IMG/VR virus record: IMGVR_UViG_2681813225_000025
Reading direction: 5' to 3' (one strand)
DNA: 8,514 nt
Source of the DNA: a virus
Lineage: Duplodnaviria; Heunggongvirae; Uroviricota; Caudoviricetes
The position numbers and the translations under genes were made by a program. The notes beneath the pieces are model-generated. The model was given only the letters and a program-made list of their open reading frames with translations. It was not told the DNA's origin and did no database searches. This document shows, in pieces, positions 6,511 through 8,369 of the stretch. The stretch's first letter is position 1, and each line of letters begins with the position of its first letter.

Positions 6511-6681
6511 TTAAAGTTCGTGTGCCATCTGGTCTTTTTCGGCACAGATTTCACTACAATATTTTTTCATTTCCGTCGTTGGTATAACTCCACGCATGAA
6601 ATGAAGTGGTCTTGTAATGATTTTGCTTTCTTCAATTTCTTTATTGCAAAGGTGATAAGCACATTTTATTTTCTTAGTCAT
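6511..6681 (-). CDS. ydaE: YdaE-like small Cys-rich (putative metal-binding) protein, 56 aa
   Basis: Not in the ORF track (below its size cutoff). Hand-translated: [59 protein letters not shown] stop at 6511..6513. Start ATG overlaps the kilR stop (TAATG); an in-frame ATG two codons upstream (6687) is an alternative start. Confidence 0.65.
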   Translation of the reverse strand: MTKKIKCAYHLCNKEIEESKIITRPLHFMRGVIPTTEMKKYCSEICAEKDQMAHEL

Positions 6682-6902
6682 TACCATGACTCCGCCTTTA
6701 CAGGTAAACCATCACGACCGAGGAAGACTCTAATCATGCAGTCAGAAATGCATGTTTTTGTAGTCAGGCTACGAATATAAAGTTTTCGCTTTTTAATATT
6801 GTTTGCCGAGGCGATATATGTCCGACCTTCATGAAGAACATAATCGCCAGGAGTCACACACTGACGTGGTATTTCATCAGTTCCGAAGTGATGAGCAATC
6901 AT
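6681..6902 (-). CDS. kilR: KilR-like cell-division inhibitor (FtsZ-targeting killing protein of Rac)
   Basis: 73-aa [43 protein letters not shown]... with AAGGAG 6 nt upstream of the ATG at 6902. Size and position match kilR of Rac. Confidence 0.75.
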
Positions 6903-6948
6903 AATTATCTCCTTAATAAATTTCTCGTATTAAGAAAATTCCAGAAAA

Positions 6949-7503
6949 CTATTTAATACTCAGCAACTGCTCGACGGTCATATTTTTAATTGCGCTTCGG
7001 TTTACAAGAGTCCAGCCCTGTTTCTCCAGATAAAGGCGGAAAGTGTCCAGGGTACAGACGAGAGCGCCATCAGGAACGGTTTCAGTGAATTCGACGTTGC
7101 CGAATTTGTCGAAGCGAACAACCAGAGTGCGCCCATCGCCCGGAATGATTTTGTTTGTGGGAGTGGTATTATTCTGGCGCAGTTCTTTCTCCATGCGATC
7201 GAACTCAGCGATGTAGGCTTCTTTAAATGCAGCGGCTTTTTTGCCGGTGAAGCCCATCACCAGGAAAACGAAGCCGTTTTTGGTGATTTGGTACATTGGG
7301 AGTTTGCGACCGGTTGAGTCGGTATATTCGCTCGACACAAAATTGTGCTCAGTGAATTTTGCTGAACAGTCCAGATTGCGAATTTTATCCAACACTCGTT
7401 CGTGGCGTTTACCAAAGAACTCAGCGATCGCAATAGACGTAGTGACAGCGCGTCCATTTTCGATGGTTACGTCAGGGTGAGAAAGGGTATGGATAGTAGC
7501 CAT
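6949..7503 (-). CDS. Phage regulatory protein Rha family (N-terminal Rha domain, uncharacterised C-terminal domain)
   Basis: Residues from MATIHTLSHPDVTIENGRAVTTSIAIAEFFGKRHERVLDKIRNL...YTDSTGRKLPMYQITKNGFVFLVMGFTGKKAAAFKEAYIAEF match the conserved Rha-domain pattern (TTS..IAE.FGKRH..VL..IR ... PMY.MT..GF..LVMG.TG.KA..FK.AYI..F). Start set at the ATG at 7503 (GAGG 8 nt upstream) so the Rha domain is N-terminal as usual. The same frame stays open to an ATG at 7800 (283 aa, GGTGA-type SD), so a longer product cannot be excluded. Confidence 0.7.
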   Translation of the reverse strand: MATIHTLSHPDVTIENGRAVTTSIAIAEFFGKRHERVLDKIRNLDCSAKFTEHNFVSSEYTDSTGRKLPMYQITKNGFVFLVMGFTGKKAAAFKEAYIAEFDRMEKELRQNNTTPTNKIIPGDGRTLVVRFDKFGNVEFTETVPDGALVCTLDTFRLYLEKQGWTLVNRSAIKNMTVEQLLSIK

Positions 7504-7667
7504 GATGGCAGCCTCGATAGTCAGTTTAAATAACTCACCACCAAGGCTTTCCACGACCATAAGGGTGGTGAGACGTACAGGGGTGGAAATACCGGTGACT
7601 ACCGAAACCGGCCAGCCTTTCGGCTGCCCTGCACGCCCCACCATAATCTGAATGTGGCTGTGCATTA

Positions 7668-7700
7668 CGCATAAAAAAACCGCATGAGCGCGGTTATGCG
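7668..7700 (-). terminator. Candidate intrinsic terminator on the minus strand (stem AACCGC/GCGGUU, loop GCUCAU, then a U-run)
   Basis: Plus strand reads cgcataaaaaaaccgcatgagcgcggttatgcg; on the minus-strand RNA the hairpin is followed by 5 or more U. Lies between the upstream small genes and the Rha start, inside the alternative 5' extension of the Rha ORF. Confidence 0.4.
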
Positions 7701-7863
7701 CAGTAGTCATCATCGGGTTTCCACGCCCGGCACCCGCTTTATGAGGTGCAGGTGCACTATAATTCCACCCGTTCTGGTTTTCAATAGCTACATCCAACAT
7801 TTTCTCTCACCTTTCATCACTGAAGTGAACTTTGTTGATGCGGTGCCTGGTGCCTCCAGGTGA

Positions 7864-7885
7864 CGTTAACCAGTTAACAATTAAC
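7864..7885. repeat. Short tandem array with 8-bp period: GTTAACCA, GTTAACAA, TTAACGCC (GTTAAC is itself palindromic), next to a GTGCCTG/GTGCCTC tandem at 7842..7856
   Basis: Read directly from the sequence in an otherwise non-coding stretch; operator- or iteron-like appearance. A GATAAT -10-like hexamer follows at 7890..7895 on the plus strand. Confidence 0.4.
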
Positions 7886-7970
7886 GCCGGATAATCCACC
7901 CATAACACTGATGCTTTTAACTGTGCCGCGTGCGCTCAGCCGCATTCACCGCAAGCATCACAAAATTCAC

Positions 7971-8017
7971 TTTAAAAAGGGGCGGCAGGGCAGCCACGGA
8001 GTAGAACTGATGCCGCC
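7971..8017 (-). terminator. Candidate intrinsic terminator or structured RNA element on the minus strand (7-bp GC-rich stem GGCGGCA/UGCCGCC, then CCUUUUU)
   Basis: Plus strand 7981..7987 ggcggca pairs with 8011..8017 tgccgcc; an A5 run on the plus strand at 7974..7978 gives a U5 tail on the minus-strand RNA. The loop is large (23 nt), so the call is tentative. Confidence 0.3.
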
Positions 8018-8216
8018 AAAGACTACACATAGCAATGTCGTTATTTACAACCGGAGGCGCACTCCCACCATTTAAATTTGACAGACAAGACCGACTCTTT
8101 ATGGATACCGGAAATGCGCCTTCGTGTTATGCCCGGTTTTATTTCACCACCTCCGGGCTTTGGTGGCCTCGGCTATACCTCTACAGCGAGAATATTGAAT
8201 TAATCCAGTAAATGGA

Positions 8217-8369
8217 TTAGCTGGTATTTTTGGCAAGCCAGCGACGTGCGCCTGTTTCAGTTTTAAATGTTTTGCTTTTGGTATACGTCATGGCGGTGAA
8301 CGTTCCATCCTGGTTGGGGAACACGCCACACACTAGGGATTCGTTGTTGCCGAGGTCGATTTTTTGCAT
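8217..8369 (-). CDS. ydaF: YdaF-like small prophage protein (50 aa)
   Basis: Not in the ORF track. Hand-translated: MQKIDLGNNESLVCGVFPNQDGTFTAMTYTKSKTFKTETGARRWLAKNTS, TAA stop at 8217..8219, immediately followed by a perfect 7-bp hairpin (TAATCCA/TGGATTA). Weak RBS. Identity from memory of Rac gene order and size. Confidence 0.5.
   Translation of the reverse strand: MQKIDLGNNESLVCGVFPNQDGTFTAMTYTKSKTFKTETGARRWLAKNTS

Follow-up and report, generated by a model that had tools for sequence, protein, structure and literature searches.

We analysed an 8,514-nt stretch of DNA (hereafter, the window) from the tailed-phage record IMGVR_UViG_2681813225_000025 (Caudoviricetes), with emphasis on the minus-strand interval between kilR and a ydaF-like gene, in which a gene of the Rha family lies. 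The window corresponds to the left arm of a Rac-like prophage integrated beside yebY and the ryeA/ryeB (SraC/SdsR) pair of small RNAs (sRNAs), the latter recognized using Rfam. On the minus strand, the map order is integrase, excisionase, ralR with the RalA RNA, recT, recE, ydaE, kilR, the Rha open reading frame (ORF), and the ydaF-like and ydaG-like genes. Reading from the ydaF-like gene toward kilR, the interval contains a DicF/KilS-family sRNA, a conserved leader, and a cassette made up of a sigma70-like promoter, an IsrK-like RNA and the terminator that closes it, a C4-like RNA, the Rha gene, and a short 3' spacer, arranged in that order (Table 1). An earlier note, made from the sequence alone, had described this interval as a Rha gene plus about 700 bp of ORF-poor, structured DNA in the sieB slot of Rac, and had suggested that it might be a swapped-in accessory or exclusion function.

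Promoter and RNA elements of the cassette

The transcription start predicted from the promoter, approximately 7749, is position 1 of the isrK model, and the -35 and -10 positions were conserved in 11 copies of the cassette. A search for a LexA box near this promoter gave no convincing site. The IsrK-like RNA is closed by an intrinsic terminator (7695-7678, followed by U7) and carries two short elements: a1 (7718-7724, GUGGAAA), located in the loop of an IsrK hairpin, and b1 (7701-7709).

The C4-like antisense RNA folds as an outer stem around two hairpins. The loop of the second hairpin, b', is at 7596-7607, and a single-stranded element, a' (UUUCCAC), is at 7583-7589. The 3' tail contains a CACCACC motif that was invariant in the aligned copies; a tail of this type is at most suggestive of processing by RNase P. 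Based on its covariance model score, its compensated fold, the targets of a' and b' at a ribosome-binding site (RBS), and the presence of a1 and b1 upstream, this RNA is a member of the C4 family.

Complementarity and covariation of the a and b elements

The target region of the Rha mRNA contains one further copy of each element, a2 and b2 (Table 1). The b2 element includes a GAGG Shine-Dalgarno (SD) sequence (7515-7512) located 8 nt before the ATG at 7503. In a scan of loops against the transcript, the 12-nt loop of the second C4 hairpin (UUUCGGUAGUCA, b') paired at 12 of 12 positions with 7523-7512, including the SD sequence of Rha; based on transcript shuffles, 0.03 matches as good as this one were expected. 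The same loop was also complementary over 9 nt to 7709-7701 (b1) in the IsrK-like RNA. Similarly, a' paired at 7 of 7 positions with the GUGGAAA at 7554-7548 (a2) and with that at 7724-7718 (a1). Whole-molecule comparisons of C4 with its flanks using RNAduplex yielded unrealistically long duplexes and were uninformative for IsrK; the loop scan and covariation counts were used instead.

Covariation was evaluated using 11 diverged copies: the window, O157:H7, two from one Shigella genome, Citrobacter braakii, and six phages (mEp460, cdtI, phiP27, P88, a Stx1 phage, and Salmonella phage 118970_sal3). A scan for Rha in species-representative genomes yielded just 5 loci, and diversity was drawn from the phage collection instead. 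For a1-a', 98.7% of the alignment cells were paired and 6 of the 7 pairs had changed on both sides. The corresponding values were 98% and 8 of 9 for b1-b', and 80% and 7 of 12 for b'-b2. Within the C4 RNA itself, all cells (100%) were paired in hairpin 1 and in the outer stem, with 4/5 and 3/17 pairs, respectively, changed on both sides. The a and b elements vary between copies yet change jointly at all three sites. The observed covariation score was reached by 0 of 500 shuffles, and slid controls were 38-49% paired.

The b2 element ends in GAGG in every copy, and ATGGCTAC comes next in the ten Rha-type copies. The conservation of GAGG and ATGGCTAC in the Rha-type copies thus identifies the ATG at 7503 as a conserved, regulated start.

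The two cassettes in the Shigella flexneri genome (CP182556.1) differ from each other in a and b, and each is matched to itself. This pattern would be expected if co-resident copies were mutually insulated.

Table 1. Features of the window and of the Gifsy-1 locus used for comparison.
Feature	Coordinates	Strand	Evidence or remark
kilR	6681-6902	minus	
Inserted cassette, 907 bp	6916-7822	minus	Alignment to K-12 Rac and Qin
Rha-family protein, 184 aa	6949-7503	minus	N-terminal Rha domain, ~aa 10-111; C-terminal module, ~aa 101-184
Annotated N-terminal 'Ash' extension, 99 codons	7504-7800	minus	Open frame through promoter, IsrK, terminator, and C4
Rha mRNA target region	7512-7554	minus	a2 = 7548-7554 (GUGGAAA); b2 = 7512-7523
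C4-like antisense RNA	7561-7648	minus	Rfam C4 (RF01695), 79.3 bits; gathering score 45
IsrK-like RNA	7673-7749	minus	Rfam isrK, 63.6 bits; gathering score 50
Sigma70-like promoter, TTGAAA-17 nt-TATAGT	7756-7784	minus	Consensus scan, 10/12 matches
Conserved 5' leader	7823-7979	minus	Normally abuts division-inhibitor gene (kilR in Rac, dicB in Qin)
DicF/KilS-family sRNA	7980-8031	minus	Rfam DicF (RF00039), 60.9 bits; gathering score 48
ydaF-like DUF1391 gene	8217-8369	minus	
Gifsy-1 isrK	34316-34240		Directly after Q gene; Rfam, 79.3 bits
Gifsy-1 C4-family RNA within 'orf45'	34214-34131		Rfam, 69 bits
Gifsy-1 anrP (STM2616)	34076-33513		
Gifsy-1 isrJ	33480-33406		Rfam, 100.3 bits

The Rha protein

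The Rha-domain gene that the earlier note had placed between kilR and the ydaF-like gene is real: its 184-amino acid (aa) product exceeded the cut-offs of both PF09669 (9e-31; 106.7 bits versus 29.9) and TIGR02681 (2e-31; 109.6 bits versus 45.95). The protein belongs to phrog_995 (2.7e-83), and its best PHROGs (995, 821, and 518) bear the label 'transcriptional regulator'. The N-domain also matched PHROGs labelled anti-repressor or Ant, namely phrog_373, 63, and 10324. The C-terminal ~85-90 aa, which the note had been unable to place, had no match in Pfam even at E ≤ 1. This C-domain matched phrog_25059, labelled as having unknown function, and phrog_2379 (~1e-6, profile positions 108-180). 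The AnrP protein of Gifsy-1 is a full-length member of phrog_2379 and has an ORF6N N-domain. A direct BLASTP comparison of Rha and AnrP was not significant (E 0.2), and the two C-domains are linked by the PHROG profile only.

A phmmer search of the C-domain against 1.84 billion cluster representatives returned just 27 hits. Several of these, long repetitive proteins, are probably spurious. Among the informative relatives, the N-domain is Rha, AntA, or ORF6N, and two again have a translated IsrK-C4 leader. The AlphaFold2 model of the full-length 184-aa protein, built with close homologues, was poor (predicted local distance difference test, pLDDT, 44.6), and a sequence search of the PDB returned nothing meaningful. 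PADLOC gave no hits for Rha, the long ORF, KilR, or YdaF.

Many phages have the IsrK-C4 leader in front of a gene whose annotation reads antirepressor, Ant, Rha, or derepression protein; in P88, which is P2-like, the cargo behind the leader is a 76-aa derepression protein. The sharing of domains and the consistent cargo of the IsrK-C4 leader suggest that Rha is a probable antirepressor.

The annotated 'Ash' extension

The Prokaryotic Genome Annotation Pipeline (PGAP) annotates a 282/283-aa form of Rha, starting at ATG 7800, in near-identical prophages, including a Rac-like one at ttcA in O157:H7. On the 283-aa ORF, the Pfam family Phage_ASH (PF10554) matched residues 14-108 (3e-19; 69.9 bits versus a cut-off of 26). 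The matched stretch, 7761-7477, spans the -10 box, IsrK, the terminator, C4, and the RBS. In the leader (7749-7504), column entropy was flat with respect to codon position (0.651/0.634/0.650), as were the numbers of invariant columns (32/27/33). For the first 105 codons of Rha in the same sequences, the entropies were 0.58/0.48/1.08 and the invariant columns numbered 35/45/6. Further, similarity to the phage copies starts at the +1 of IsrK, not at ATG 7800. In P88, indels are not divisible by three and the sole annotated gene over the RNA region is on the opposite strand. Finally, the same 'N-terminus' is fused to different C-termini in five PHROGs (995, 821, 6928, 3960, and 29966). Because the stretch lacks codon periodicity, the Phage_ASH match reflects translated, conserved RNA genes. 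The 7504-7800 extension is not a protein domain and evolves as RNA, and the true start of Rha is most likely ATG 7503.

These results bear on the description of 7504-8216 as ORF-poor and structured. The first part holds for 7801-8216, which contains no minus-strand ORFs of at least 40 aa, but not for 7504-7800, through which the Rha frame is open to ATG 7800. The distrust of the 283-aa ORF in the earlier note was justified, but the cause is the presence of RNA genes rather than the absence of an ORF. The description as structured is borne out by three Rfam families above their gathering thresholds and one below.

An AUG in the 5' end of C4 (7644-7642) opens an upstream frame of the type found in orf45 of Gifsy-1. 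This frame was stop-free to the gene start in 12 of 12 copies, including Gifsy-1, whereas the other two frames usually contained 1-6 stops. As the frame is open in all copies and orf45 of Gifsy-1 is translated, ribosomes may cross the RNA region while the peptide is unconserved. Translation through the RNA region may thus be a conserved feature.

The 283-aa 'Rha family' proteins of RefSeq, and apparently the Ash family of Pfam, embed a translated promoter and two sRNA genes. This constitutes a systematic annotation error, the sRNAs themselves being unannotated.

Boundaries of the cassette and variability of the slot

The homology to K-12 Rac stops after AAAGTTCAYTT (7823) and restarts at the SD sequence of kilR, GGAGATAATTATG (6915). 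The order in K-12 Rac is kilR, a 175-bp leader, the kilS sRNA, sieB (on the opposite strand), ydaF, and ydaG; the order in the window is ydaF, the DicF/KilS-type sRNA, the leader, the IsrK-C4-Rha cassette, and kilR. In the alignment to K-12 Rac, the interval contained no counterpart of the K-12 sieB DNA. By this alignment, sieB represents a separate insertion/deletion between ydaF and the sRNA leader, and Rha is no same-point substitute for it.

To establish how variable the slot is, haplotypes were surveyed in 5426 complete E. coli genomes, the criterion being the presence of at least 80% of the respective interval. The ydaE-kilR segment was present in 1794 genomes. The window haplotype occurred in 376 of these kilR-bearing genomes (~21%) and the K-12 sieB/kilS haplotype in 1370 (~76%), such that the two together accounted for ~97%. 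Across the 376 genomes, the cassette is retained at 91-98% identity. Matches to the query interval numbered a median of 2 and a maximum of 10 per E. coli genome, for which the DicF/leader segment is partly responsible. In other lambdoid phages, the cassette is part of the pR operon, with a cII-like gene on one side and replication genes on the other, and in Gifsy-1 it occurs after Q. The prediction placed no terminator in the gap from the Rha stop (6949) to the kilR start (6902), so read-through would feed kilR as well.

The earlier note's picture of the slot was correct in part. K-12 Rac does carry sieB between kilR and ydaF, but the Rha block was inserted at another point. The idea of a swapped-in module applies to 7822-6916, which is an insertion, but not to 8216-7823, whose sRNA and leader are ancestral and also occur in Rac and Qin. 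The interval is indeed a variable accessory slot, as the counts of 376 and 1370 among the 1794 ydaE-kilR-bearing complete E. coli genomes demonstrate. As for whether the block alternates with sieB, two main haplotypes exist at the slot, but Rha and sieB are not exchanged at the same point.

The ancestral sRNA and leader

The DicF/KilS-type sRNA has a terminator-like hairpin (7997-7982) followed by T5, and its homologous 5' leader reaches to ~8185. Its synteny involves DUF1391-type genes on one side and a division inhibitor on the other (ydfA..dicF..dicB in Qin; ydaF..kilS..kilR in Rac). Judged by sequence and position, the sRNA is the positional orthologue of KilS in K-12 Rac and DicF in Qin. 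KilS is an sRNA from the 5' untranslated region of kilR in K-12 that was verified by Northern blotting (PMC8175672). In alignments to K-12, window positions 8185-7823 were colinear with the kilS leader, kilS, and the kilS-kilR spacer, and 7997-7826 shared ~95% identity with the dicF hairpin and the dicF-dicB spacer of Qin. These alignments indicate that 8216-7823 is ancestral rather than swapped in, and that it makes up most of the upstream 'structured DNA'.

In K-12, the Qin dicF-dicB and Rac kilS-kilR regions share the arrangement seen in the window: DUF1391 genes (ydfA/ydaF), an sRNA whose terminator hairpin is of the DicF type, a leader (~150 nt) that is almost identical, and a division inhibitor. 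The window differs from both in that its leader is parted from kilR by the 907-bp cassette. It differs from Qin in that the 5' seed of its sRNA is KilS/RprA-like, not DicF-like, and from Rac in that sieB is absent.

An Rfam match to STnc100 at 7953-7839 (minus strand) scored 39.3 bits, below the gathering score of 47. An independent STnc100 sRNA at 7839-7953 was rejected as the principal explanation, the match being sub-threshold and the stretch being the conserved dicB/kilR leader.

The DicF-family sRNA (7980-8075, minus strand) looks chimeric, with a DicF-like 3' hairpin and a 5' part, ACATTGCTATGTGTAGTCTTTGG, that matches K-12 KilS. In a manual alignment count, this 5' part was also identical at ~21 of 22 nt to the 3' half of the core sRNA RprA. 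The 5' targeting sequence of K-12 DicF was not found, the 5' part aligning with KilS and RprA instead. The alignment hints that the targeting sequence of this prophage sRNA resembles that of RprA.

Comparison with Gifsy-1 and P1 immI

The Gifsy-1 locus has a promoter, IsrK and its terminator, a C4-type RNA, an SD sequence covered by b2, and a gene, all in the same order as in the window. It likewise has the a1/b1, a'/b', and a2/b2 complementarities and an upstream frame from an AUG in the 5' end of C4, and the C-terminal modules of the two proteins are related at the profile level. The differences are that the N-domain is Rha in the window and ORF6N in AnrP; that the upstream frame runs on in frame into the gene in the window but ends at AUGA in Gifsy-1; and that the window cassette lies in the early-left operon before kilR whereas the Gifsy-1 locus lies after Q. 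Unlike Gifsy-1, the window had no Rfam match to isrJ.

The study of Gifsy-1 by Hershko-Shalev et al. (2016, PMC4825925) reports that transcripts from PisrK partly read through the IsrK terminator, that anrP is transcribed but not translated, and that IsrK supplied in trans lifts anrP translation ~140-fold. According to the same study, orf45 is the source of a processed ~80-nt RNA, STnc1160, and is itself translated, this being required for the coupled translation of anrP. The conservation of orf45 is described there as being at the nucleotide and not the amino-acid level, and its frame as ending before anrP in Gifsy-1, whereas Shigella dysenteriae has a 287-aa orf45-anrP fusion. AnrP is further stated to increase the mRNA of the antiterminator antQ, resulting in growth arrest. 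The passages of that paper that were searched contain no mention of phage P1 or its antisense RNA. Based on the Rfam match in orf45 (69 bits) and the alignment, Gifsy-1 is linked to C4, and STnc1160 is probably the C4 RNA within orf45.

The layout a1 b1 - c4(a' b') - a2 b2 is that of the immI operon of phage P1. This operon, in P1 and P7, is reportedly c4-icd-ant, a description attributed to Citron and Schuster in 1990. As in P1, the window has a C4 antisense RNA (RF01695) on the transcript of its own target, from which it is cut by RNase P in P1, where it represses ant. In both, two short elements pair with a2/b2 at the RBS of the first downstream gene, and copies a1/b1 lie upstream. In both, the a and b sequences are associated with specificity: they set it in P1, and the window family shows copy-specific three-way covariation. 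The window differs from P1 immI in that icd, the small ORF between c4 and ant at whose translation P1 control acts, is missing and b2 covers the RBS of Rha itself, and in having an intrinsic terminator between a1/b1 and C4. With a C4 RNA inside orf45, the IsrK/orf45 system of Gifsy-1 and the c4 system of P1 immI appear to be one family. Motifs named 'c4 antisense RNA' and 'c4-a1b1' are widespread in gamma-proteobacteria and phages (Weinberg et al. 2010, PMC2864571).

Proposed mechanism and alternative explanations

We consider it highly probable that the interval consists of the ancestral sRNA and leader plus a self-promoted, RNA-gated antirepressor cassette of the P1-immI/Gifsy-1-IsrK kind. 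The computation establishes the RNA families, the positions of the promoter, terminator, and SD sequence, the three-way covarying complementarities, the insertion boundaries, and the evolution of the 'Ash' stretch as non-coding sequence. In the proposed mechanism, the internal promoter would drive synthesis of a short IsrK-like RNA, ending at the IsrK terminator, and read-through transcripts would extend through the C4-like RNA into Rha and probably on into kilR. The b' loop and a' of C4 would pair with b2 and a2, covering the SD sequence of Rha and leaving Rha untranslated. The a1 and b1 elements of IsrK would act as decoys, pairing with a' and b' of C4 either in cis or in trans, such that more IsrK would free the RBS and turn Rha on. 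Rha, with its Rha N-domain and AnrP-type C-domain, would most likely bind and inactivate a prophage repressor. The direction of control (C4 repressing and IsrK activating), the processing of the RNAs, the antirepressor activity and its target, and the co-transcription of kilR are inferred from the P1 and Gifsy-1 homologues.

Several observations weigh against this interpretation. The Rfam c4-a1b1 model scored 24.6 bits, under its gathering threshold of 46.7. The N-domains of Rha and AnrP (the latter ORF6N) are unrelated (BLASTP E 0.2 overall), and the model of the C-domain, built from the alignment of its phmmer relatives (pLDDT 83), matched no known fold in a structure search. The orf45-type frame of the window runs in frame into Rha, there being no separate ORF of the icd/orf45 type in the window, and the sequence may allow a longer, 231-aa product from AUG 7644. 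The Gifsy-1 authors explain activation by a structural switch in cis and not by titration of free C4 RNA (PMC4825925), and the switch in the window may follow either logic.

The RNA switch could operate as described while Rha acts as a DNA-binding regulator of phage or host promoters and not as an antirepressor that binds a repressor. The database name 'Rha family transcriptional regulator', the labels of PHROGs 995, 821, and 518, and the dissimilarity of the N-domains of Rha and AnrP would all agree with such a role. We nevertheless regard it as unlikely: the N-domain also matches the anti-repressor/Ant PHROGs (phrog_373, 63, and 10324), the C-domain is common to AnrP, AntA, and ORF6N proteins of the antirepressor type, and the IsrK-C4 leader consistently precedes cargo of this type, including the 76-aa P2-type derepression protein. 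The cassette might instead be an inactive relic, since Rac-like prophages are often defective and one of the copies in S. flexneri CP182556.1 has a Rha truncated to 111 aa. The intact ORF in the window, the 12/12 pairing of b' with b2, the presence of promoter, terminator, and SD sequence, and the 91-98% identity kept in 376 complete genomes render such decay improbable.

Whether 7504-7800 is coding, with the 283-aa Ash-Rha fusion as a real product, was weighed in the same way. In its favour, ATG 7800 has an AGGTGA-like SD sequence and starts an open frame that nearly all copies retain; Phage_ASH scored 69.9 bits against a cut-off of 26; and hundreds of genomes carry the long form in their PGAP annotation. 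Such a product is nonetheless very improbable. The ORF contains a promoter, an intrinsic terminator with its U7, and two above-threshold Rfam families with compensatory changes; codon periodicity is absent, with invariant columns spread evenly over codon positions; and conservation in phages begins at the IsrK +1, not the ATG. The P88 copy has indels that are not divisible by three and an annotated gene on the opposite strand, and the SD sequence and ATG at 7503 are conserved. In Gifsy-1, moreover, the frame stops before anrP, and nucleotides but not amino acids are conserved, as stated in PMC4825925. Least probable of all is a superinfection-exclusion or anti-phage defence moron in place of sieB, which the earlier note had raised as a possibility. 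The interval is polymorphic, the common alternative haplotype has sieB, and the cassette has its own promoter, as morons have. Against this, PADLOC returned no matches, every part of the cassette fits the known RNA-gated antirepressor module, the insertion point differs from that of sieB, and in other phages the cassette is found either downstream of Q or within the pR operon, flanked by cII-like and replication genes. Evidence for exclusion or defence is thus nil.

Other features of the window

In Salmonella, the SraC/SdsR sRNA locus is known as a hot spot at which horizontally acquired DNA inserts. In the window, the integrase gene (735-1811) adjoins the convergent SraC/RyeA and SdsR/RyeB pair (463-607) beside yebY. 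The RalA antitoxin RNA is full-length at 2169-2347 (219 bits) and overlaps the ralR toxin region, indicating that the type I RalR/RalA pair of Rac is intact in the window. A YdaE-like 58-aa protein (6511-6687) matched the eukaryotic Rtr1/RPAP2 zinc-finger family at just under the threshold (31.7 bits versus a cut-off of 33), which is probably just a common cysteine pattern.

Implications

As far as our searches show, this is a known kind of regulatory cassette at a location for which there is no earlier description. It does not reveal a new defence system. It does join two literatures, that of Gifsy-1 IsrK/orf45 and that of the classical c4 system of P1 immI.

According to a 2025 study, haemolytic uraemic syndrome (HUS) in O157:H7 is predicted by kilR and by four variants of the upstream (-25) region of this gene (PMC12711010). 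The knockout primer of that study matches a K-12-type kilR junction, and other O157:H7 genomes carry the cassette (junction ~6903-6925). The upstream 'variants' of kilR may in part be the presence or absence of the cassette. More speculatively, and with what we see as a rather small chance of being correct, the a/b 'address' of each copy could provide orthogonal RNA locks on the antirepressors of co-resident prophages, the lock upstream of kilR could also gate division arrest, and the HUS-linked kilR variants could tag the presence of the cassette.

In approximately one-fifth of Rac-like prophages, including those of O157:H7, a self-promoted, RNA-gated probable antirepressor is located directly upstream of kilR, the gene for a toxic inhibitor of FtsZ. 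Such a kilR-adjacent switch would offer a testable route from stress signals to prophage cross-talk and division arrest.

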